Notes under the pieces: model-generated
What the model saw: only the letters and a program-made list of their open reading frames with translations
Told to the model about the DNA's origin: nothing
Databases searched by the model: none
IMG/VR virus record: IMGVR_UViG_3300048930_000349
Location: 1 to 52,850 of that record
Direction: 5' to 3' (one strand)
Length of the DNA: 52,850 nt
DNA from: a virus
Taxonomy: Duplodnaviria > Caudoviricetes
Made by a program: the position numbers and the translations under genes
Shown here: in pieces, positions 3,067 through 52,494 of the stretch
How the letters are laid out: each line of letters begins with the position of its first letter
Position numbering within the stretch: position 1 is the first letter of the stretch

Positions 3067-5758
3067 GGCTCTCCACCTCCAGCACCACGCCGAGCACGGT
3101 GGCCGGGAGCGGCGAGCGGAATTTCATGCACAGCCGGGAGTCGGTGCTCCAGGATCCGGGCAGGGTGAACCCATCCGAATCATAGTCCTCGAGGAAGGCA
3201 TTCACGCCCTGGTCGGCGCCGCGATAGAACCGCGGCAGGGGATCCATGCGGGTGAAATCCTGACCGAACAGCACCGCGCGCATGTGGGCCTTGTAGAGCA
3301 GCGGCGAAACCCGGCTGACAATCTTGCGCTGGGTGACGGCGGTGCCCGTCTGGGCAGCATAGGCCAGCTTGGTGGACTTGAACCTTCCCTCGTAGGGGAT
3401 GCCCACCATCACGTCGCCGGTGAAGGCGGAAGGCAGCGTGATCTGCCCGCCCGAGACCTGGAAGGTGCGGGGTTCCCCGGCGTCGGTGAGGAGAGGGGCT
3501 GTGCCCTGCCACACCACCACGGTCTCGCCCTCGAGATGGGAAAGCCCGGTGACGGTGGCCGAGGCCGCGAGGGTGACCACCTTGTAGCTGTCGGCCATCC
3601 GGCAGGAGGCCCCACCCTCGGCGTTCTGCTCATAGGCCAGGCGCTCACGGTAGCGCTTCGGCGTGCCGTCGATGTTGCGGGCCACGATGAGGAACACGTC
3701 ATCGCCCTCGGTGTTGGGCAGGACGCACACGTCCTCGATGTCGCCGTCGGTCTCGAAGGTGGTCCAGGCCAGCACGTCCTCGGCGGGCTCATAGGTCAGC
3801 ACCGCGGCCGTGCCGTCCTCGAGCACAAACCACACCCTTGTGTCGGGCTGGCGCTGCACCGCCATCACCTTCACCCCGGAATCGAGAATGGAGGGGTTGT
3901 AGCGCGAGAGTTCGCTGGCCGTGTAGTCCTGGGCCTCGACCGAATAGCTCAGGATGTGGGAGCGCTTGCCGGAGCGATTGACGAACACGCCGGAGCGATC
4001 GACCTTCACCGCCTGGATGTCGGCGGAGCCGATGGTGGAGGCGTCCTTGATCGAGAAATTCGTTGGGGTGATCGGCTCATCGAAGCTCGAGGAGCGGGCC
4101 GAGGATTCCGCCCCGGAGGTGCCCACCAGCAGCCGCGCCAGGCCCATCAGCCATTGCACCCGGTTGACCGGGCCCGCCGCCACGGAGCGCACGATCGGGG
4201 AGGCGTCGGTGATCTCCTCCTCGTAGAAGGTCTCGAAATCGTCGGAGGCGCTGCCCACCAGCTTGTCGGCCGAGCCGAACCACAGGCGCCCCTCGAAGAT
4301 CTCCACCGCCGAAGGCCAGCCCTGCTGGTTTGACCACAGGCCCTCGCGCCAGTTGGAGCAGTTGTCAGAGGAGTGCAGCCGTGAGAGGACTTCGATCGAC
4401 ACCGAGGTGGGGCTGGTGTAGCCGGTCACCCGGACCACGCCGGTGCCGCCGCCGCCCTGCACTTCGAGATTGACCACCGCCACGCCGCTGGAATGGGCGT
4501 CGGGGCCGAAGCCCATGCGGTAATAGGTGATCTGGCCATTGGACCCGACGTTGCGGTTGTAGTTGCCGTTGTTGTCGGAGAACGACAGTGCCTCGACCCA
4601 CGGGCCATCGGGGGAGTCGGCAGAGTATTCGCGCAGCGTGCCGCTCCACGTCCCCGAGCGGCTCATGGTCACGCGGCGCTCGTTGACGGCGGTGTTGCTG
4701 GCGTTGGTGGTGTAGCCCGCCACCCGCACCCAGTCGGAATAGGTGTCATCTCCCCCGAGGCGGTTGGAGGCAGTGGTCTTCTCATAGGTGAGCTCGAACA
4801 GGGCCCCCACCATGTCGGGGGTGAAGAAGGCCGCGGAGGCCGTCATGGTGCCGTTGCCGGTCCTCACGTTGGGGTCGAGCGTGACGTTGGCGGTCTTGCC
4901 CTTCCACGGCCCATTGGTGATCTGCTGGATGGTGAGCGACCAGGAACGGATGCCGCGGCGCTCGATGCGGCGGGGCGCGTGATCCTTGTGAACGACGAAA
5001 ATCACGTCGCCCGACTGCACATAACGGAGCTCGAACAACTGCGCCGCCGACCATGGCGAGGTGAGGGAGAGTTCGCCTGCCGCCTCGATCTGGATCTCGT
5101 CCACCACCACCTGGGTCTCGGCGGCGGAGTTGAGCTGGATGAAAACGGTGGCGGCATTGGGCGTGAAGGCGAGGCTATGCACGCCCGGCCCGAGTTCGGT
5201 CTCGGCAAGGATGTCCTGGCCGCCGGAGGAGGTGCCCAGCTTGAAGCGCACGATGCCGCGGGTGACGGTAATCCGCACCGCGTGTTCCGTGGCCTGGTCG
5301 CCCGCCGAGACGTTGAACGAGCGCGAGGCCGAGGCGGTGCGGCCGCGCGCGTCGGGGATCAGCACCAAGGCGCCGGAGACGGTGGAATTGACGTTGGCAT
5401 CGACCAGCGTCCAGCCGGTGCCGCTGGAGAAGTTGCCGTTGGTGATGCTGGTCGAGACCGAGGCCCGGGAGATGGGCGAGCCGTTCACCAGCGGGCGGAT
5501 CCTGAGATCGGTCAGTTCCACCAGGGCGGTGTCCTCGGCCGAGAAGATGAAGGGGAGATGCCGCCCCGCGAGATCGTTATAGGTCGAGCCGTCATGCTCG
5601 AGGCCCGGCCGGAACTGGAGCGGGCCGATCACCTTGGGGAAGCAGTTGTGGAATTCCTCCGCCGTGATTCGCATCCGGGCGAGATCGGTGCGGCCCAGCG
5701 CGAGGGGCGAGACGGCGCCGCCGTTGAGGGCGAAAAGGTGGGGGCGTTCCCGGGCCAT
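3053..5758 (-). CDS. Tail tubular protein B (nozzle)
   Basis: About 900 aa beta-rich; ELRYVQSGDVIFVVH, GWPSAVEIFEGRLWFG and GLSHLEGETVVVW motifs; start MARERPH overlapping the upstream stop. Confidence 0.85.
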   Translation of the reverse strand: MARERPHLFALNGGAVSPLALGRTDLARMRITAEEFHNCFPKVIGPLQFRPGLEHDGSTYNDLAGRHLPFIFSAEDTALVELTDLRIRPLVNGSPISRASVSTSITNGNFSSGTGWTLVDANVNSTVSGALVLIPDARGRTASASRSFNVSAGDQATEHAVRITVTRGIVRFKLGTSSGGQDILAETELGPGVHSLAFTPNAATVFIQLNSAAETQVVVDEIQIEAAGELSLTSPWSAAQLFELRYVQSGDVIFVVHKDHAPRRIERRGIRSWSLTIQQITNGPWKGKTANVTLDPNVRTGNGTMTASAAFFTPDMVGALFELTYEKTTASNRLGGDDTYSDWVRVAGYTTNASNTAVNERRVTMSRSGTWSGTLREYSADSPDGPWVEALSFSDNNGNYNRNVGSNGQITYYRMGFGPDAHSSGVAVVNLEVQGGGGTGVVRVTGYTSPTSVSIEVLSRLHSSDNCSNWREGLWSNQQGWPSAVEIFEGRLWFGSADKLVGSASDDFETFYEEEITDASPIVRSVAAGPVNRVQWLMGLARLLVGTSGAESSARSSSFDEPITPTNFSIKDASTIGSADIQAVKVDRSGVFVNRSGKRSHILSYSVEAQDYTASELSRYNPSILDSGVKVMAVQRQPDTRVWFVLEDGTAAVLTYEPAEDVLAWTTFETDGDIEDVCVLPNTEGDDVFLIVARNIDGTPKRYRERLAYEQNAEGGASCRMADSYKVVTLAASATVTGLSHLEGETVVVWQGTAPLLTDAGEPRTFQVSGGQITLPSAFTGDVMVGIPYEGRFKSTKLAYAAQTGTAVTQRKIVSRVSPLLYKAHMRAVLFGQDFTRMDPLPRFYRGADQGVNAFLEDYDSDGFTLPGSWSTDSRLCMKFRSPLPATVLGVVLEVESHERA

Positions 5759-39205: not shown

Positions 39206-42200
39206 CTACTCCATCCCGATGAGCAGATCCGAGAAATCGGCCTCCTGCCCGTCCTCCAATACCCTATTTTTCACCTCGGGCCAAACCTCTCGCACGCTCT
39301 GGTCATCGTTGACCTTGCGCTTGCTGTAGCGCGCGAGCAATTCCTCGCCCAATTCGGGTGCCAGGGTTGTGATGTCCTGGATGAGGCTCTCGGTTTCCAT
39401 GTACTCTTTCCCGGCCCAGCCGGGGATGCCGGTGGTGATCAGGGCGTTGCGCGCCTCCACCATCGCCAAGCGCGCGAGAAGCTCCTGGGCGCCGTGGCGC
39501 TGGTCCGGCGTGAGGGTGATGAGTTCTGGCTCCTCCTCATCGCTCTCGATCATCTTCACCCGGTTTCCGGCGATCTCCTTGCGCAAGGCAGAGATGGCGG
39601 CCACAGCATCCTTGGCCCGGCGCATCGGGTGCAGCCGTTCCACCTTGGCCTCGAAATGCGTGGTGAGCTTGGCATAGGCCTTGAGGTTCTCGTCCCGGCC
39701 GTCGAGGAAGGCATCGGCCGCCGTGGCCCCTTGCGACTCGAATATCTCCTTGTAGGTGTTGGCGCCCTGGGCCAGCGGCCCGGATGACTCCGACATCTGG
39801 GCCCAGAATTCCCGGCTCGAGGTCGCCCCGGAGGTCACTTGCTTGAGGAAGCGGCGGGAGATCGCCCCGCTCATGGTCTCGAGCACCGGGCGCTCTTGGG
39901 CGGTGTCGCGGGAAATGTCGGTGATGATCTTGCCCCAGGACGCGCCGAAGCCCTGGATGGCGTGATCAATCATCGCCGGGCTCATGCCGGTCACATAGCC
40001 CATGCCCTTGGCAATTTCCGAGGTCTGGGCGGTGTACTGCCGCCACGGCTCGAAGCCTGCAATATCCCGGCCCACGATCGGGCGGCCGAAGGAGTCAACA
40101 TTGTGGGCGAGTTGGTAACCGACATTGAAGATCGGCACCTCCATCGGAGGTGCGGTCACCTCGAACAGGCCGGACCAGAACGACTCCATCGCCACCGGGT
40201 TGCGCTTGTAAACCGCCTCGAAACCGCGCTCGAACAGGTTAGAGATGAACCCCAGCTCGAAGGGCTTGGGAATGGCGATCCAGTCGCCCGGCCCGCGCTT
40301 CACCATCCAATGGGTGGCGCGGAGATATTCCGAGATCTCCTCATGTTCCGGGTCATCGCGGTAGAGATAGGACAGGCCGAGGCCGAAGACGCCGATCGCC
40401 GCCACCTTGGCCCAGGCCTTGGCCGCCTTGCCGAGGTTGGCCTTGTCCCGGGCCGAGAGCGGCCGCCCTGCCCGGTGGTTGATGTAGGGGGTGATGGCCT
40501 TGCGGATGGCGCCCTCGCCAGTGAGCACGCGCACCGTCTTGTCGAGGCCCTGGAGCGAGGCGTTGAGGAAGGTCACCAGGCGCCGCGCCGCGTGCGTCCT
40601 CGAGCCATGGCGGCCAAAGTCGATATAGTCCCGGGACTGGAAAGCCGCCTCCACCGCGGCCTCGTAATCGTTCAGCCCCTCGCGCTTGGCGCGGTCGAAG
40701 GCCGAGCGGAAGATCCCCAGCCTTGTGCCGGTCTCGGTCAGCTCGGTGAATTCCGCAAAGCCGCGGATCGAGGCGAAGCGCTTGATGGCATAGCCCTTCT
40801 TCTGGAGGGCGCCGAGATCGCGCTTGGCCCGGCCGCGATCGAGGGCCGCGACATTGGCGCCGCCCATGATGCCGCCGAAGGAGTTGTAGATCTGGGTGAT
40901 CTCGCGCTGGGTGATTTCGTCGTAGAGGCCGCGGGCGCCTGTCACGAAAGGGATGAAGGTCTCGCCCGAGAGAACCCAGGCGGACATTTGGTCACGGACA
41001 TAGTTGGCCAAGACGAAAGGCGGCGCGGTGGTGATCGAGTAGCGCAGCGCTGTCGTGGGAAGCGCTAGGGTGGCGGTGAACAGATCCCGCGACTCCTTGT
41101 TCATGCCGGTCATGGCGTCGTAGAGATCCTTACCGAATTCGCCATCCGCCAGGCGCAGCGCGTGCTTCTTGCCATCGCGCCAGGAGTAGATGATCGGCTC
41201 ACCCTTTTCGTTGATCTCGCCCGCCCGGAACACCGTGGCATTGGCGCCCTCGCCCATCATGTCATCGACCAGGGTGGTGAGCGCGTCGATGTCACCGGGG
41301 TTGAGACCGGCCTCCTTGCCTGCCGTGCGCAGCACCTCGTTCACATCCACCGATGTGCCCTTGAGTTGGGTGGACGGAATGCGCTCCAGGATGGCGCCGC
41401 CGCCCGGGCCCGCCTGGCGCGCCAGATCCTCGAGCGCCTTGAAGACATCGTTGCGGCGCATCAGGGCGTTGAAGTGATAGGCGTCCGCCATCATGGACTC
41501 GATCGGGTTGATGATCGAGCGCTTGGACCCCTTGAAGGCCTTGATGATCGAGTTGCGCAGCACGCGGTTCGGCTCGGCGCCCGCCTCCCGGTCGAGGTCG
41601 GTGAGGTCGCGCATGAAGGGCACATAGTCCTTGCGCTGGATCAGCTCCTCGTAGAGTTCCTGGGTGATGAAGCCTGCCTCGTATTTCTTCTTGAGGAGGT
41701 TCTTCTGCCAGCCATAGACCATTTCGGCGGCCTGGATGAAATTCGGGTTTGCCGCCTCGAGTTCGGCAATCGTCACCTCATAGTCGCCGCGGGTGAACTT
41801 GCCCGGCGGGTTGGGAATCTCGCCCGCCAGAAAGCGGTCATACTCGAGCACCGCCCGCCGAGAGATGAGATAGGAAGCGAAGTCCGCGACCAGCGCGTCA
41901 TCCCAGCCGGTCCACTTGTCGCCCCAGGCCACCGCCAGGCCATCCGCCAGGGCCGGGCCCTCGGGGCGCACGCCGCGATAGGGCACGACACCGTGCATGA
42001 GATCCATGTGCCCGGCGGAATAGCTGTCCTGCAGCAGCCGCGCCAGGCGGTAGGGATCCTGGGCGGAGGTGATGTCGAGCGCCTTGCCGGTGCGCTTCTC
42101 GTAGACCTTGAGCAGCTCGTCCACCGCCCGGTTGATCGGGTTGAGCTTGTCCAGGAAGGTGGTGTAGGCGGTCGAGGCGTAGTTGCCGATGGTGGCCCGG

Positions 42201-43030
42201 ATGCCATTCTTCTCGGCCTCCTTGATCACCTCGGTCACGGCATTGCCGCGGCGGGTCGAGACCACATCCCCGGCCACCGCGGCGCGCGAGGGGGCGGTGA
42301 CATGGGCGAGATAGGCCGCCTGGATGCCCTGGATCTGGCGGAGCTGGTCCGGCGCCCGGGTGCGCAGCATGTCCTCAAAGGCCTGGGTGAAGGCCGGAGC
42401 CTGGGCGCGGGCATAGTTCGGGGTGGTGACGTAGTAGCGGAACCACTCGGCAAAGCCCTCGGAAAGCTCCTGGCGCGGATCCGCCCCGGCATAGGCGAGG
42501 GGTTTCAACTCCGCCTCGTTGGCCAGCTTGATGGTGTTCAGCGTCCGGCCCCATTCGGTCTCGAGCGAGTGCGCGGTCTCATGAGTCTGGGTCTCGAAGT
42601 CCGACACCTCGCGGAGGCGGATGACGCCCTGGCCGCGGTCGTATTGGCCTGCCACCTTGCCGCCGCCTGCCGGGGCGCGCTGTAGCCTTCCCTGCCGGAC
42701 GGGGGCGCCGGTCAAGGCCTGGAGATCGGCCGCGATGTCCTCGAGGCGCGGCGCTTCCACTGGCCGGGCCGCCTGGCCCTGGGTGACGGTGCCGCCCTGG
42801 GGGCGGTTGACCGGCATAGCGCCTTGCTGTTGCGGGCGGCGGGCGAAGGCCACGCCCTGGCTGGAGACCGGGAAGCCCTTGGCCTGGATTTGCCCGCGCA
42901 AGCCTTCCAGCTCGGCCGTCAGCTCATCGGCATAGGACTGGATCGCGGTGGCGTCGGACCCGCGCTCCCGGATTTCTGCGATGTCATCGGGAAGGACGCG
43001 GATCGAGGCAAGGCATTTGTTCAGGCTCAT
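39206..43030 (-). CDS. Large ejection/polyvalent protein with zincin (HExxH) and LPD38-like domains
   Basis: 1274 aa; THETAHSLE...EGFAE; C-terminal DFGRHG...FLNASLQG...AIPKPFELG. Confidence 0.75.
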   Translation of the reverse strand: MSLNKCLASIRVLPDDIAEIRERGSDATAIQSYADELTAELEGLRGQIQAKGFPVSSQGVAFARRPQQQGAMPVNRPQGGTVTQGQAARPVEAPRLEDIAADLQALTGAPVRQGRLQRAPAGGGKVAGQYDRGQGVIRLREVSDFETQTHETAHSLETEWGRTLNTIKLANEAELKPLAYAGADPRQELSEGFAEWFRYYVTTPNYARAQAPAFTQAFEDMLRTRAPDQLRQIQGIQAAYLAHVTAPSRAAVAGDVVSTRRGNAVTEVIKEAEKNGIRATIGNYASTAYTTFLDKLNPINRAVDELLKVYEKRTGKALDITSAQDPYRLARLLQDSYSAGHMDLMHGVVPYRGVRPEGPALADGLAVAWGDKWTGWDDALVADFASYLISRRAVLEYDRFLAGEIPNPPGKFTRGDYEVTIAELEAANPNFIQAAEMVYGWQKNLLKKKYEAGFITQELYEELIQRKDYVPFMRDLTDLDREAGAEPNRVLRNSIIKAFKGSKRSIINPIESMMADAYHFNALMRRNDVFKALEDLARQAGPGGGAILERIPSTQLKGTSVDVNEVLRTAGKEAGLNPGDIDALTTLVDDMMGEGANATVFRAGEINEKGEPIIYSWRDGKKHALRLADGEFGKDLYDAMTGMNKESRDLFTATLALPTTALRYSITTAPPFVLANYVRDQMSAWVLSGETFIPFVTGARGLYDEITQREITQIYNSFGGIMGGANVAALDRGRAKRDLGALQKKGYAIKRFASIRGFAEFTELTETGTRLGIFRSAFDRAKREGLNDYEAAVEAAFQSRDYIDFGRHGSRTHAARRLVTFLNASLQGLDKTVRVLTGEGAIRKAITPYINHRAGRPLSARDKANLGKAAKAWAKVAAIGVFGLGLSYLYRDDPEHEEISEYLRATHWMVKRGPGDWIAIPKPFELGFISNLFERGFEAVYKRNPVAMESFWSGLFEVTAPPMEVPIFNVGYQLAHNVDSFGRPIVGRDIAGFEPWRQYTAQTSEIAKGMGYVTGMSPAMIDHAIQGFGASWGKIITDISRDTAQERPVLETMSGAISRRFLKQVTSGATSSREFWAQMSESSGPLAQGANTYKEIFESQGATAADAFLDGRDENLKAYAKLTTHFEAKVERLHPMRRAKDAVAAISALRKEIAGNRVKMIESDEEEPELITLTPDQRHGAQELLARLAMVEARNALITTGIPGWAGKEYMETESLIQDITTLAPELGEELLARYSKRKVNDDQSVREVWPEVKNRVLEDGQEADFSDLLIGME

Positions 43031-47582: not shown

Positions 47583-47984
47583 TCATTTAACGCTCGCATA
47601 AATGGTGGACCCGACCAGCGGCCGGGCCACGATGCGCTCGATGTCGCCCGCCGCATTGCGGACCACATCGAACTGGTAAGGCTGCTTCGGCTGGGGCGGA
47701 GCGGGAAGCGGCTGAGCTTTGGCCGCTTGCTCCACCTTCGCGGCCAGGCTGTCAAGGCGCGCGAGGATCTCGAGGGTCTTGGGATCCGGCTCCTCGGGGC
47801 CCTCATCGGCGGCCTCGTTTGCGATGATCTCGCGCACCAACGTCTCGATCTGGGCCAGGCGCTTGATGACGATCGGGTCGGTGAGCACTCGCTCCACGGT
47901 GCGGGGGACAATCTTCTCCACCACCCGCTCGATGACTTTCGGCTGGGGCAACTCATTGGTGAGGTATTCACGCTTAACCCGCAT
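47583..47984 (-). CDS. Hypothetical coiled-coil protein
   Basis: GGAG RBS; C-terminal YQFDVVRNAAGDIERIVA. Confidence 0.6.
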   Translation of the reverse strand: MRVKREYLTNELPQPKVIERVVEKIVPRTVERVLTDPIVIKRLAQIETLVREIIANEAADEGPEEPDPKTLEILARLDSLAAKVEQAAKAQPLPAPPQPKQPYQFDVVRNAAGDIERIVARPLVGSTIYASVK

Positions 47985-50900
47985 TGATACACTCCAGGAG
48001 TTGCCGCAATGACTGGATCCGCGTTAGCATGAAATCGACTGCATCTCCAGCGTTCACCGGGATGGCCTTGCCGGTCTCGTCCACCGCCATGACCGTGGCA
48101 TCCCGCCAGGGGCCGGGTTGCATCAGGGGATCGGAAGCCGTACCCTGTGACAACGTGCCATCTTGAGCCGCGGCCTGGTCTGCACCAGGTCTGTTATTAA
48201 AGGAGGGATCCGTGAAATTCGTAGATTGGGAGAGCCGCCCGGCGCTTTGGTCGGTGGGCAAGGCCTGGGCCATATTGGCGCCGGGAGAAGACTGGACCCC
48301 CGTTGACTCCATCGAGGTCGGGGAGTCGGGGAAAGTCCTGCCCAGCGCGGAGTCGCTGGCGGAGACCTTCTCGAGCACCTTCGGCGCGCTGCCGCCATTC
48401 CCCAGCACCACGGCGGACCAGGACGGCGGGAGCGAGTCCACGATCGGCGCGTAAAGGTCGATCATCGCCTGCTCGAGTTGGGCCCGCTCCGGGCCTTCCG
48501 GCATGGAGCGCGAGGCCGTGTAAAGCTCGGTGCCGCCGCCCTTCATCTTGGCATAGGCAAGCTGCGGCTCCCACACCTGAACCTCGCCGATCGTCCCGTC
48601 ATAGAAGCGCACCGCCACCTTGCGGTCGAAATAGCCGTGCGGGGTGACGATCCAGCCCTCATCAAGGACATCGAAGAATTCCGCCAAGCGTTGCACCAAG
48701 GCATCGGCCTGTTGCGGGGTCTGCACCTCGAAGCCGGAGCGCACCAGGTCACCGAGCTGCTTGGTCGAGCGGTAGCCCTTGCGGCCAATCTTCTCCTCGG
48801 TGGTGGCGCGCTTCTTGATGCCGGGGTTCTTGAAGGTGATGCCCAGATCCTGGGCGATCTCCTGACCGGCGGCGACCAGCTCGTCCTGGCGGCGCTGCAG
48901 GATGCCGCCCTCATAAAGCTCGTCGAGGCTGCGTTCGGGCTGGCTGTCCATGAACGCTTTGCCGATCTCCTTGGCCGTGGCCGGAGGATGATTCGGCGCC
49001 GAGAACGCAAAACCCTGCTGGTCGGCGTCATCGCTGAACAGGCCGAGGTCCATGGCCTTCTGGGGGCGCTTCGGGCGGAGCGGGGCGGCGGCGCGCATTT
49101 CCGCCAAGCGCTTGTCGCCTATGCGCTCGGCGCCGGGGATGACGGCCTGGGGTTTGTTGTCGGCGCCGGTTTCAAACAGCCCCGGTCCGGCCTGGACGGG
49201 GCGGCGGGAGAAGGCGATGTTGGGCTGGCCTTGGAGGGCCTCGTCAATCGCCTCACCGATCGCCTGGGCCGAGAGAAGGTCACCGGCCTCATCGAAGGAT
49301 CCGCGGCTCTGCGGATATATGCGGGAGAGTGCCTCCTTGGCCTTCTCGAGCGGCACCTCGGTGATCAATTCCTCGGTGAAATTTGCATCCTCCCCGAAGG
49401 AGTAGGCAATCCGCGCCTTGCCATCCGGCCAGGGCGTGAGATCCACGCCGATCTCGGATGATGTCGCTTGCCCCCCCACCTTGTTGGAGCGCTCATATTT
49501 TCCGGCCTTCTGGGGCGGCGCGGTGATCTTGTACACCGCGATTGAGTTGCCCGATCCGCCTGCAAAAGCCGGGCTATCGAAATCGTCCAGTTGCCCGGCA
49601 TGGCGAGCCACGCCCCCGAGGTTTCCGGCATTCTTGCCGCGCACCGAACGCGAGCCCTGGCGCTGGATCCGCGCCACATAATAGGTGCCGGACACATCGT
49701 CATTGACGCGGAACGCCGGAGCGCCAGGCTCTAGTCTTGCGGCAATGCCCGTTTCACTCTCGCGTCCAGCCGCGCCAGGGATACCCCCGTCCGCACCAGT
49801 TGCCGGACCCGATCGGCGGAGCTGGTCGAGAAAATCTCGGACAACGACCTGTCGGGAACCGCCGTCTTTAAGTCGCTTTGCGGCGGCGGCGAGGGCGTCG
49901 GCAACGGGGCCTTTGCGCCGCGCTTGGGCTTGGAGGGTTGCGAGGATTTCGGCATCTTGGGTGGCCCTTTTTGCATTGGTCTGGGTGGCGAGCTTGTTGC
50001 CTGCTCCGGTGAGGCGGGCCTCCTCGCGCACCAGGGTGGCGAAGGCGGCGCGGTCCTTGCGGATGGCGGTGGCGGCGGCGCTCAAGACCTGGGCGCGCTC
50101 CTTGAAAAGGATCTGCGTCACCTCGGCCGAGCCGAACATATCCTCCATGGTGGACTGCACGGCCGGGGCCTCGAGGGCATCCCGGATCATGCTCTCCGCC
50201 TCAATCGCATTGTCCGGCTGCTCTTTGGCGAGGAGCCCGAGCAGCTCGGCATGGGTCTTCGGATCCGGCGCCAGGCGGCCCACCTGGGCGGCATAGCCTG
50301 CCGGAACTTTCTTGTTGATAACCATCCCGAAGGCGTCATCCGAGAGGCTGGCGAGCCCCTGGGCATCGCGCACCAGGGCGGAAGTCGGAGGGAGATCGAC
50401 CCCCATGTCCGGCCGCGAGCGCAGGATTTTGGCGGCGTCGATCGCGTTGCCGGTGCCCTCTGCGATGTTCTTGGCGGCGGCGATCGCCCGGGCGTCCTCG
50501 GCCGTCACGCCGTCCGCTTCCCGGAGGACCACGGCGCGGATCTTCGGATCCTGGCCTTCCTTCTCGAGGCGCGAGGCGAGGCCATGGCGCTGGTGGCCAT
50601 CGGCAATGAAGAAGTTGCCCTCGAGATCCTCCCACACCAGGGTCACGCCGGACTTGATCGGGTCCCATGTCTTCACGCCCTTGAGGCGATCGGTGACTCC
50701 GGCCTCGTCGCCGCCGTCCTTGAACTGGAAGCGCTTGGCGTCAACCTTGAGATCGGAGGGGCTGAACTGGCGCTCGGTGCGGTCGATCGGCAGGGGCGCG
50801 GGCGGGGCCTGGCGCGGTGCCGGGGTGGTGACTTCAAACATAGATTCGCGAGCGGGGTTGGCCTCGAAGCCCGGGCCCTGGAGCATGGTGGGGGTCTCGA

Positions 50901-52494
50901 GCTGCACCTTGCCATCGGGGAGCACCACGGCGCGGCGGCCGTCATCCCTGCCCCTGTCCCACACCTGGTTCCCGTCCGCGTTGACGCCGATCTGCTTGGC
51001 ATCCGGGCCCAGGGGTTTTGGGGGGGCAAGTTCAGCGGCAGGCGTTGCCTCGGTGACCAGCTCGGCGGTGGGCGGCGCATCGGGGGCGGTGCCGCCGGTG
51101 AGGTCGGCCCATTCCTGGTCAACCTCGGCGGCGCGCTGGCTGGCGATCGCCTCCTTGACGCCGCGGCCATCGTCGCCGCTGATGCCAGGGCGGAATTCAC
51201 CGGAGGAGAACAGGCCGCCGGGATTGAGAATCCCCAAGTGCTTGGTGGGGTCCGCGTCGATCGCCTGGATCTCGGGGCTGTCGGCGCCGAAGGTCTTGAT
51301 TGCCTTCTCGAGGGCGTCGGCATGGCGCTCGCCGGTGAAAATCTTGCCGCCTGCCATGAGGGCCGGGGTCTTCTCGCCGCGATACTTGGCCGGGTCTACC
51401 GAGAGATCCGCGGCCTCCTGCTGCACGATGAAATCACCGATCGGGTTGCCGGGGAGATCGAGAGGAACATCCTCATTGGTCAGCCCGCCCGGGGTCTCGG
51501 GCTCGGCCTGGGGAATATCCCCCGCGCGCCCGGCGTTGAGGTAGTCATCGAGTTGCGCCGCCTGCTCGGGGGTGAGATTGCGCGTGCCCACCACCTCGCC
51601 AAAGAGATCCTCCTGGGCCTGGGCGAGATCCTGGGCGCTGTACTCCGCTTGCAGCTCTGCCGCGGTGGGGGGCGCCATGGTCTGGGGCGGCGGGGTTTCA
51701 GCTTGCGGCTGGCGCGGGGCCATCGGGCCGGGGGCGGGAGGAGCGGACGCGGCGCGGGCGGCTTCCCGAGTGTAGAAGTCGGCGGCGGCGCGGCCGTCGA
51801 GGTAACCGAAGGGGATGCCAAAGGCACCACCGGCCAAGGCATCGACACCGAGCGAGAGCCAGTCCACCTCATCGCGCATATCGGCGCCGAATTCCTCCGC
51901 CTGGACGGCGCCGTTCAGCGCCACGTTCATGGCGGCATTGGAGACGCCGTGATCGAGGAGCCGTGAGAGCATCGGATAGGCCATGCGCCAGCCGGTCGTG
52001 CCGATCTTGACCACCGGCCCGACGAGGGAGAGAGGATCCGTCACGGCACCGGCAACAGCACCACCCACCGCGGCGGCATAGTCGCCAGCCGTTTCGGCGG
52101 GTTTCATGCCCTCGAATTGCGCTTGGCGCTCGCGGCGCATGTCGCGGAGGAAATCCGCTGTCTGCTTCCCGGCCTCAGGGCCGACACCGACACCACCGAC
52201 ATAGCCCATGTCGGCGTCCTGGATCTCGCCCAGGTCATTGAGGCCCGGCGTGCCGTATTGCTGGGCGTTGCGGAAATGCTGGACGAACCGCTCTTTCCAA
52301 TCGACATCGGCGGGAGCGGATCGCTCCGCGAAATCCGTATCGGCGCGGAAGGCCTCATAGGGATTCTGGTCCGGCTTCACCTGGAGGCCCATGTCCGGCT
52401 TGTAAGGCACCGGCTCGCGCGCCGTGATGGCGCGGGTCTGGGCCTCGCCTTCAGGGCTCCAGCTATCAGTCGGTGTGCCGGGCATCGTGACCAT
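47974..52494 (-). CDS. Large polyvalent (ejection) protein with ParB-like and RelA/SpoT-like domains
   Basis: 1506 aa; ParB-like FFIADGHQR at about 50400-50770; SAS-like IKKRATTEEKIGRK...LGDLVR...GYFD...GEVQ at about 48460-48850. Confidence 0.8.
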   Translation of the reverse strand: MVTMPGTPTDSWSPEGEAQTRAITAREPVPYKPDMGLQVKPDQNPYEAFRADTDFAERSAPADVDWKERFVQHFRNAQQYGTPGLNDLGEIQDADMGYVGGVGVGPEAGKQTADFLRDMRRERQAQFEGMKPAETAGDYAAAVGGAVAGAVTDPLSLVGPVVKIGTTGWRMAYPMLSRLLDHGVSNAAMNVALNGAVQAEEFGADMRDEVDWLSLGVDALAGGAFGIPFGYLDGRAAADFYTREAARAASAPPAPGPMAPRQPQAETPPPQTMAPPTAAELQAEYSAQDLAQAQEDLFGEVVGTRNLTPEQAAQLDDYLNAGRAGDIPQAEPETPGGLTNEDVPLDLPGNPIGDFIVQQEAADLSVDPAKYRGEKTPALMAGGKIFTGERHADALEKAIKTFGADSPEIQAIDADPTKHLGILNPGGLFSSGEFRPGISGDDGRGVKEAIASQRAAEVDQEWADLTGGTAPDAPPTAELVTEATPAAELAPPKPLGPDAKQIGVNADGNQVWDRGRDDGRRAVVLPDGKVQLETPTMLQGPGFEANPARESMFEVTTPAPRQAPPAPLPIDRTERQFSPSDLKVDAKRFQFKDGGDEAGVTDRLKGVKTWDPIKSGVTLVWEDLEGNFFIADGHQRHGLASRLEKEGQDPKIRAVVLREADGVTAEDARAIAAAKNIAEGTGNAIDAAKILRSRPDMGVDLPPTSALVRDAQGLASLSDDAFGMVINKKVPAGYAAQVGRLAPDPKTHAELLGLLAKEQPDNAIEAESMIRDALEAPAVQSTMEDMFGSAEVTQILFKERAQVLSAAATAIRKDRAAFATLVREEARLTGAGNKLATQTNAKRATQDAEILATLQAQARRKGPVADALAAAAKRLKDGGSRQVVVRDFLDQLRRSGPATGADGGIPGAAGRESETGIAARLEPGAPAFRVNDDVSGTYYVARIQRQGSRSVRGKNAGNLGGVARHAGQLDDFDSPAFAGGSGNSIAVYKITAPPQKAGKYERSNKVGGQATSSEIGVDLTPWPDGKARIAYSFGEDANFTEELITEVPLEKAKEALSRIYPQSRGSFDEAGDLLSAQAIGEAIDEALQGQPNIAFSRRPVQAGPGLFETGADNKPQAVIPGAERIGDKRLAEMRAAAPLRPKRPQKAMDLGLFSDDADQQGFAFSAPNHPPATAKEIGKAFMDSQPERSLDELYEGGILQRRQDELVAAGQEIAQDLGITFKNPGIKKRATTEEKIGRKGYRSTKQLGDLVRSGFEVQTPQQADALVQRLAEFFDVLDEGWIVTPHGYFDRKVAVRFYDGTIGEVQVWEPQLAYAKMKGGGTELYTASRSMPEGPERAQLEQAMIDLYAPIVDSLPPSWSAVVLGNGGSAPKVLEKVSASDSALGRTFPDSPTSMESTGVQSSPGANMAQALPTDQSAGRLSQSTNFTDPSFNNRPGADQAAAQDGTLSQGTASDPLMQPGPWRDATVMAVDETGKAIPVNAGDAVDFMLTRIQSLRQLLECINAG
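48212..48454 (+). CDS. Nested antisense gene, candidate antitoxin/immunity protein
   Basis: AAGGAGG RBS 6 nt before GTG; globular 80-aa product with 4 Trp; host frame turns Ser-rich over the same span. Confidence 0.6.
   Translation: MKFVDWESRPALWSVGKAWAILAPGEDWTPVDSIEVGESGKVLPSAESLAETFSSTFGALPPFPSTTADQDGGSESTIGA
49731..49955 (-). CDS. Candidate nested same-strand alternative-frame gene
   Basis: G/C-ending codon bias moves from the host frame to this frame; MPKSSQPSKPKRG...; alternative ATG at 49976. Confidence 0.4.
   Translation of the reverse strand: MPKSSQPSKPKRGAKAPLPTPSPPPQSDLKTAVPDRSLSEIFSTSSADRVRQLVRTGVSLARLDARVKRALPQD

Follow-up and report, generated by a model that had tools for sequence, protein, structure and literature searches.

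The virus record IMGVR_UViG_3300048930_000349 (Duplodnaviria; Caudoviricetes), considered here over its whole length of 52,850 nt (the window, about 65% GC), carries on its minus strand a polyvalent-type gene, P0001, whose open reading frame (ORF; 47974-52494) translates into a protein of 1506 aa. This protein comprises a ParB-like region (aa 558-895) and a small-alarmone-synthetase (SAS) domain of the Tas1/Apk type, followed by a linker rich in Ser and by a conserved tail at the C-terminus. Nested antisense within the same gene lies a plus-strand ORF (P0002; 48212-48454, GTG start, TAA stop) that encodes 80 aa. Wobble tests, a hidden Markov model (HMM), AlphaFold2 (AF2) modelling, and homologues indicate that this ORF is almost certainly a real protein-coding gene missed by gene finders, and it constitutes a candidate immunity gene for the neighbouring synthetase domain.

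The SAS domain occupies aa 1164-1375 of P0001 (48370-49005, minus strand) and was assigned to the RelA/SpoT fold by AF2, Foldseek, and a profile search. Its motifs are KKRATTEEKIGRK at aa 1227 (nt 48816-48778), LGDLVR at aa 1247, GYFD at aa 1287, and GEVQ at aa 1303. The AF2 model, based on an alignment of 32 sequences (A1), has a predicted local distance difference test (pLDDT) score of 94.5. In the Foldseek ranking of its matches, Tas1 (6ox6_A, E 3.4e-6) comes first and the exported synthetase SaSAS (8vx3) second, followed by RelQ/RelP/Rel/CapRel. The matches to Tas1, SaSAS, RelQ, RelP, Rel, SpoT, RelA, and CapRel all have a probability of 1.00, which identifies the synthetase (nucleotidyltransferase) fold. 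When the A1 profile is compared with PDB sequences, Tas1 is found at E 6.8e-17, and the alignment of the two pairs the elements K..eK, D..R, GY, GE.Q, AK, and GH..Y. The residues invariant among the 32 sequences are K64, K72, D86, R89, G91, D115, E116, W118, D127, R128, E141, Q143, K153, and Y162; the conserved basic and acidic residues and those of the E.Q motif are presumably catalytic. Judged by sequence and model, aa 1164-1375 is a Tas1/Apk-like alarmone synthetase. By analogy, its product is probably (p)ppApp, and we infer that the domain acts as a toxin. None of the 32 members of A1 matches the Pfam family RelA_SpoT at E<=0.01, so that routine annotation leaves toxin domains of this Tas1-like clade unnamed. 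At E<=1e-3, the domain is matched by 599 cluster representatives, mostly within long proteins.

The nested ORF overlaps the codons for aa 1347-1428 of P0001, and the codons of the two frames have their third positions in common. Its stop codon coincides with the codon for Tyr in DLYAPIV (aa 1348), within the last helices of the SAS model. A Shine-Dalgarno (SD) sequence, AAGGAGG (48200-48206, plus strand), is separated from the GTG by a 5-nt spacer, GATCC. Directly upstream of it, an 8-bp terminator-like hairpin followed by TGTTATTAAA spans positions 48172-48191 of the plus strand (a scan found one such hairpin, compared with 0.6 expected) and includes the palindrome CCTGGT-CTGC-ACCAGG (48175-48190); the hairpin might function as an operator or in RNA stability. 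Two TGG codons stand out in P0002. The first encodes the invariant W6 (48227-48229, plus strand) and corresponds on the sense strand to the wobble C of Ser TCC together with the CA of Gln in PSQS, while the second encodes the conserved W28 (48293-48295, plus strand) and is opposite the NNC wobble before Gln in VQSSPG. The first-pass annotation of this DNA had listed the SAS motifs, the 1506-aa ORF, the plus-strand ORF, and the palindrome, together with the shared wobble positions and a head-on stop at the end of the domain, all of which are present. It had also placed AAGGAGG 6 nt before the GTG; the motif is there, and the spacing is 5 nt.

Within the window alone, the nested ORF is not beyond chance, and its significance derives entirely from comparison with relatives. 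With the sense protein and its codon usage held constant, an open antisense frame has a probability of 0.42, and 39% of the same-length windows along the P0001 gene are open in that frame. The pattern AAGGAGG-N4-9-DTG has five occurrences in the window, where 1.37 would be expected, and a count of five was attained in 3 of 100 shuffles; as evidence from the window alone, a ribosome-binding site (RBS) plus start was rejected as not significant. The openness of the ORF and its RBS, which the first-pass annotation had put forward as arguments, thus have no significance on their own. Both observations suit the explanation that P0002 is a chance shadow of a gene of 65% GC, with a conservation that mirrors sense selection, as does the fact that the shared-wobble frame is where long shadows arise: shadow ORFs of 327, 410, and 680 aa occur in the same gene. 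The comparison with relatives makes this explanation extremely unlikely, as the choice of sense-free wobbles maintains the antisense residues (z=15.3 and 18.7; controls near 0), neither TGG codon varies even where the GC content at third codon positions (GC3) is 0.26, SD and ATG signals are present, and homologues are encoded in the absence of any overlapping sense gene.

For this comparison, a scan of IMG/VR with A1 yielded 80 loci; with the window included, a GEVQ-type motif could be anchored in 54 of 81 sequences. After the removal of duplicates, 25 distinct sequences bear both anchors of the Ser-rich segment, and 19 diverged loci, left after the exclusion of the near-copies L008, L009, L010, L013, L019, and L035, formed the set for the wobble test. 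The loci compared span GC contents from 0.38 to 0.72. Close relatives of the window were found neither in the phage collection (blastn, tblastn) nor, by single-protein query, in viral contigs; one genome-contig locus, L081, is related to it with 41% identity. In the shared-wobble frame, all 25 sequences are open mid-segment, past the AGRPSQS motif (runs of 83-191 codons), and in 9 of the 25 the antisense stop is not at the anchor Tyr but 7-30 codons further downstream.

In the wobble test, sense-synonymous wobble bases were resampled with the sense protein fixed and with each gene's own codon usage. Over the 19 diverged loci, the antisense alignment score is 116.1, compared with a null value of 87.1 (standard deviation 1.89, z=15.3), and none of 200 resamplings reaches it. 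Three control stretches within the SAS domain of the same loci give z=0.1, 1.4, and 0.6; as these values are near 0, shared descent does not explain the antisense excess. The kind of constraint is equally informative. At sense-free wobbles that fall in a split antisense codon box, a fraction of 0.818 of the 966 pairs retains the antisense residue (0.485 expected, z=18.7), whereas in four-fold antisense boxes the wobble identity is 0.365 against 0.324 (z=2.1); the respective controls give z=2.7 and -0.5 for split boxes, and z=1.1 and 4.1 for four-fold boxes. Purifying selection on the antisense frame can thus be separated from that on the sense frame in both comparisons. The constraint tracks the antisense genetic code, a mark of translation that distinguishes it from an RNA or DNA element.

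An alternative source of the synonymous constraint would be a nucleotide element, i.e., an RNA structure, an antisense regulatory RNA, or a DNA site. Convergent transcription through the toxin gene could indeed regulate as RNA, and the hairpin at 48172-48191 would fit such a role, but the near freedom of the four-fold boxes next to the constrained split boxes, the confident predicted fold of the protein, and the existence of stand-alone and repeated-domain forms make this alternative very unlikely as the cause. An RNA role may exist on top of that of the protein.

The two Trp codons illustrate the coding constraint most directly. The Ser before Gln in PSQS is encoded by TCC in all 25 distinct loci, which gives TGG on the antisense strand, and all 24 loci with the other conserved Gln (replaced by His in L024) have C at the wobble that precedes it, again giving TGG; L004 has Gly at this place. 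The antisense Trp codons are accordingly invariant in 49 of 49 cells, including loci with a GC3 of 0.26, and the adjoining wobbles vary freely. At other CA-codons of these genes, the preceding base is C in 1051 of 3207 cases (33%). A change of the Ser codon from TCC to TCT, synonymous in the sense frame and unseen in nature, offers a clean handle for parting the two coding layers.

The nested genes also possess their own translation start signals. In a survey anchored on the conserved Trp, in which in-frame ATG or GTG codons were sought 5-18 codons upstream, an SD-like motif precedes the ATG/GTG in 30 of 37 distinct upstream regions, and GGAGG or AGGAG in 18 of the 37. The background at other in-frame antisense ATG/GTG codons of the same genes is 277 of 2423 (11%) for SD-like motifs and 23 of 2423 (0.9%) for GGAGG/AGGAG. 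P0167, a called protein with 75% identity to P0002, opens with MKFVDWES at the position of the GTG in the window. The selection tests and the start signals of the relatives strongly bear out the earlier proposal that the antisense frame, which directly follows the Tas1-like domain, is under protein-coding selection. In many low-GC loci, TATAAT-like boxes are located 6-15 nt before the nested SD; TATAAT/TATACT/TATATC-like boxes at this distance from the SD, about 10-25 nt upstream of the nested start and within the sense coding sequence, are present in L065, L068, L071, L077, L078, L005, L016, L019, L034, and L035. They are candidate internal promoters, which would give very short leaders.

Taken from the aligned sequences, the DNA of the nested segment codes on both strands. 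In the reciprocal test, the sense frame is constrained in the nested segment as well (z=8.6, compared with 17.5-19.5 in the SAS domain). The stretch of P0001 overlapped by the plus-strand ORF (aa 1347-1428) is rich in Ser, Thr, Pro, Gly, and Ala, and was described in the first-pass annotation as Ser-rich and of low complexity; the further suggestion that it is a mere shadow does not hold, as the sense frame is constrained and must stay open to the conserved tail. The Ser/Thr/Pro/Gly-rich linker proper (aa 1373-1428; 48211-48378, minus strand) is opposite the folded core of the small protein, and its sense motif, RPES.TS..ST..Q.SPG...A.A...AGRPSQS.N, is kept in relatives, even in loci of 38-52% GC. 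The conserved C-terminal tail (aa 1462-1506, ...AVDFMLTRIQSLRQLLECINAG; 47977-48111, minus strand) is reached only by read-through of the nested gene, and its conservation is likely the reason why the sense frame must read through. A tail pattern, ..L.E.D.D....L..C.., closes most related ORFs, 190-250 aa past GEVQ, and the tail is also found in P0003-P0008. In the window, it reads ..VDF...R...L.QLLEC.NAG, with a Cys near the terminus.

The AF2 model of P0002, based on an alignment of 38 sequences (A2), has a pLDDT of 82.6 and of at least 87 in every 10-residue block of residues 1-60. These residues form the folded core (nt 48212-48391), predicted to comprise, in order, four short strands and then two helices with a further strand between them. 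The core motif of the family is F.[DN]W[DE]GRPAV...A.A.L.PG..W..V...[DE]V..SG..L....F. The low-confidence tail (residues 61-80) faces the last confident SAS helices, and the folded core faces the Ser-rich sense linker; the structured part of each strand is therefore opposite the loose part of the other. Comparison of the A2 profile with PDB sequences at E<=10 returned haemoglobin-type noise only. The best Foldseek match in the PDB has E 2.1, and no chain of 6ox6 is among the matches listed (the best 50 of 87 at E<=10); in BFVD the best match has E 0.32, and the ESM Atlas gave no usable match. According to the model, P0002 is a small beta-rich domain of a new protein family.

The distribution of this family was followed with an HMM built from 24 antisense translations and searched in three iterations against six-frame ORFs of at least 40 aa; P0002 itself matches at E 1e-26. 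The small-protein domain is encoded immediately after the SAS domain in 51 of 82 sources, so that the antisense ORF with RBS which the first-pass annotation had proposed to seek downstream in homologues is indeed recurrent (SD-like motifs in 30 of 37 regions against 11%). Among the 50 loci besides the window, the gene is fully nested in 43, partly overlapping in 5, adjacent and convergent in 1, and on the same strand in 1; the small gene thus adjoins the 3' side of the toxin domain, as in pairs of the Tis1/IapK type. Most of the 31 sources that lack an HMM match have divergent nested ORFs with an SD and a start codon, of the types MRFFLVD.SIPA.E..., MRLFRFDVSEIGAV..., and LRFFRDADGDIVAIEG....

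Several homologues are partly or entirely free of the overlap. In L017, the small protein is encoded by an 88-aa ATG gene (4746-5012; domain E 1.8e-22) located on the same strand as the SAS ORF, with a 178-nt spacer after the end of that ORF at 4567; no opposite-strand ORF of at least 60 aa overlaps it. The spacer (L017:4568-4745) is AT-richer than its surroundings and has a plausible promoter, TTGGGT-N17-TATACT, about 35 nt before the ATG. In L031, a convergent gene is separated from the SAS stop codon by a 1-nt gap. In L014, L021-23, and L027, the convergent gene overlaps the SAS ORF by 40-91 nt; the small gene of L014 is called in public annotation (P0179), and in L021-23 the SAS ORF has only 300 aa, with the small gene still present. 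A convergent ORF of 706 aa in L013 (5929-8049, minus strand) encodes a hydrophobic N-terminal region and four tandem small-protein domains (E 1.6e-16 to 4.7e-25) parted by Pro/Ala/Ser linkers; the opposite strand has broken mirror ORFs only, and the internal repeats lack start signals, as expected. The product is an annotated hypothetical protein of Aminobacter aminovorans (P0181), and similar tandem-copy ORFs are located at L007/L009:5856-7454 and L010:5945-6586. A protein of the L013 type possibly confers immunity with several specificities or from a position in the membrane. Among 5.8 billion clusters, no more than 14 short members of the family were found, compared with the 599 representatives of the toxin domain, which points to a systematic blind spot of gene callers.

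Because of the free-standing homologues, the nested gene is probably the older partner. The relatives exhibit a separate gene on the same strand, a convergent gene with a 1-nt gap, overlaps of 40-91 nt, and full nesting, so that the arrangement looks like a captured convergent pair, as had been suggested earlier for this locus. The toxin ORF of a convergent toxin-immunity pair would have lost its stop codon, read through the immunity gene, and joined the C-terminal tail module, with the outcome that the DNA codes on both strands. The overlap likely originates from a convergent pair swallowed by read-through.

With regard to function, P0002 is fairly likely to be the cognate immunity protein of the SAS domain, by analogy with known pairs, on account of its gene position and of the published rule for Apk/Tas1 immunity. 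Its fixed place 3' of the SAS domain, irrespective of how the remainder of the large protein is built, and the existence of a tandem-repeat form fit an immunity gene. The large P0001 protein would be a packaged one that accompanies the DNA on delivery, and P0002 would inhibit the synthetase domain by binding to it in the phage-producing or prophage-carrying cell. In a co-fold of the SAS domain (A1) with residues 1-62 of the small protein (A2), the scores are 0.35, 0.12, and 0.08, with the mark at 0.32, and weigh on neither side as to binding.

Alternatively, the nested gene might be real and its product no SAS inhibitor, serving instead as a packaging or assembly chaperone, as a regulator, or in the protection of lysogens against toxins injected by other phages, with no action on the copy of its own phage. 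This alternative is less likely. In its favour, the gene itself is well supported and binding is deduced by analogy, the small protein has no detectable similarity to Tis1, and the four copies and hydrophobic N-terminus of the L013 type suit a membrane shield or a receptor-like role better than a 1:1 cytoplasmic antitoxin. It is at odds with the position of the gene, always directly 3' of the SAS domain whatever the other domains, and with its retention even next to the 300-aa SAS ORF of L021-23. Such a pattern is that of toxin-immunity pairs, and published Apk toxins are described as always having such a neighbour (PMC10083569).

Several points weigh against reading P0002 as an expressed immunity gene. 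The support for the gene is all comparative or predicted. A simple scan of 47800-48700 found no sigma-70-type promoter, and on the plus strand the terminator-like hairpin is located just upstream of the SD. The loci are kin by descent, and the controls bear on kinship only indirectly. Antisense stops over the 25 loci number 12, with 17.8 expected from synonymous-codon resampling; stop-codon depletion was dropped as evidence, since the composition of the sense gene by itself accounts for an open frame (P(open)=0.42 in the window). The sense protein, being constrained as well (z=8.6), is responsible for part of the conservation. The nested copy of L013 has neither an ATG nor an SD, just a GTG two codons ahead of its Trp, so that some nested copies may be silent. 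The small protein has no match in Pfam, NCBIfam, PHROGs, or PADLOC, and no likeness to Tis1 was found in its sequence (PDB, E<=10) or, among the 50 Foldseek matches listed of 87, in its fold; if it is an immunity protein, it therefore represents a new family. Finally, a lytic producer cell may need no protection.

The immunity interpretation can be extended, tentatively, to a joint one in which an old immunity family has been overprinted by its own toxin, with expression coupling, a lysogen shield, and a phage recognition system as further components. About 240 bp would then code on both strands throughout a wide phage radiation with GC contents of 38-72%. The head-on layout would couple the expression of toxin and immunity protein via transcriptional collision or antisense RNA, in addition to protein inhibition, and the membrane-anchored four-repeat form in Aminobacter-type prophages would be a lysogen shield against the synthetase toxins of superinfecting relatives. 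If this is true, virion-borne toxins and immunity proteins would constitute a recognition system of phage against phage and of phage against host.

Outside the SAS domain and its overlap, P0001 matches no Pfam family (none at E<=1 over the whole protein), and its PHROGs matches are limited to aa 558-895 (phrog_10691 and phrog_21); a MuF domain, as in Apk2, was detected in neither collection. This DGHQRH ParB-like region (window 49810-50821, minus strand) is very highly conserved and matches the C-terminal part of the 'portal protein' phrog_21 (profile positions 1005-1328 of 1362). With aa 1164-1506 as the query, a word-indexed search retrieved 22 proteins out of 6069 candidates, P0001 being one of them. 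In best local alignments, P0003-P0010 are 52-71% identical to aa 1164-1506 with a query coverage of 75-100%, the closest homologues being P0003-P0006 (64-71%). Because P0003-P0010 carry ART-PolyVal (PF18760), LPD38 (PF18857), or ddrB-ParB (PF18763) domains, P0001 is regarded as a polyvalent-type protein; the traits of this class (very large size, multiple domains, LPD or effector domains) are present through the homologues and a nearby LPD38 protein. The latter, of 1274 aa, is encoded at window 39206-43030 (minus strand) and contains the LPD38 domain at E 1.8e-29. In P0006, P0009, and P0010, LPD38 is fused to the polyvalent C-terminus; in the phage of the window, it is apparently split off, with small genes between.

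Embedded antisense genes of bacteria are mostly young, lineage-restricted, and based on expression data. Long antisense overlapping genes of prokaryotes and viruses are disputed, as most candidates rest on expression data alone; the present gene combines a rare mix of evidence, namely a codon-degeneracy signature, conserved start signals, a confident fold, and ordinary-gene homologues. The examples described in E. coli O157 and P. aeruginosa (PMC7457138, PMC8850804, PMC9927249) are likewise fully embedded and missed by annotation, whereas the evidence presented here is deeply comparative, extending across GC contents of 0.38-0.72 and to free-standing homologues. The locus also demonstrates that genes can be concealed within the 'linkers' of polyvalent proteins.

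Among the closest systems of known function is Apk1/Tas1-Tis1 of the P. aeruginosa type VI system (PDB ID: 6ox6), Tas1 being the closest solved relative by profile and fold. In that system, the delivery protein ends in a toxin domain and is accompanied by a small protective neighbour gene, an arrangement like the one proposed here; Tis1 neutralises Apk1/Tas1 (PMC10083569), and IapK blocks the acceptor site (PMC12226406). The carrier is a PAAR protein there and a phage polyvalent protein here, the small protein has no detectable likeness to Tis1, and its gene is antisense inside the toxin's own frame, whereas the Tis1 gene is located downstream. The Apk2 MuF toxins of temperate phages share with P0001 a phage-encoded Tas1-type synthetase domain. 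Their (p)ppApp synthetase domains are thought to ride in the capsid, and the published descriptions have them always accompanied by a small binding-type immunity gene, iapK (tis1-like) or aph1, which follows the toxin gene (PMC10083569, PMC12226406, PMC5576092); P0001 differs in the lack of a detected MuF domain. In toxSAS modules (FaRel, FaRel2, PhRel, and CapRel; PMC7229694, PMC11782079), a toxic SAS is similarly paired with a neighbouring gene, there a neutralising one, and CapRel and RelQ/RelP have the same fold. These modules are described as two-gene operons or fused toxin-antitoxins of cellular defence, whereas the SAS of P0001 is a domain of a phage structural-module protein, with Tas1 as nearest relative and not the tRNA-modifying toxSAS enzymes.

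RelA/SpoT domains have been recorded in polyvalent proteins and are treated, in the main text of that survey, as a host-manipulating enzyme that has no partner (Iyer et al. 2017, PMC5512222). P0001 is likewise giant and multi-domain, with homologues that carry ART-PolyVal, LPD38, and ddrB-ParB; measured against the main text, the antisense nested gene is particular to the present case. In the main texts searched, no description was found of an immunity gene nested antisense in the frame of its toxin, and the word 'antisense' is absent from the main texts of PMC10083569, PMC12226406, PMC5576092, PMC5512222, and PMC12691689. To the immunity proteins known for alarmone-synthetase toxins of the Tas1/Apk type, the locus adds a candidate family. 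Among antisense overlapping genes it is unusually well documented, and it represents a novel variant of how toxin and immunity genes are organised, in which the partnership of P0002 with the synthetase domain, by analogy with the Apk and Tas1 pairs, is probably one of immunity.

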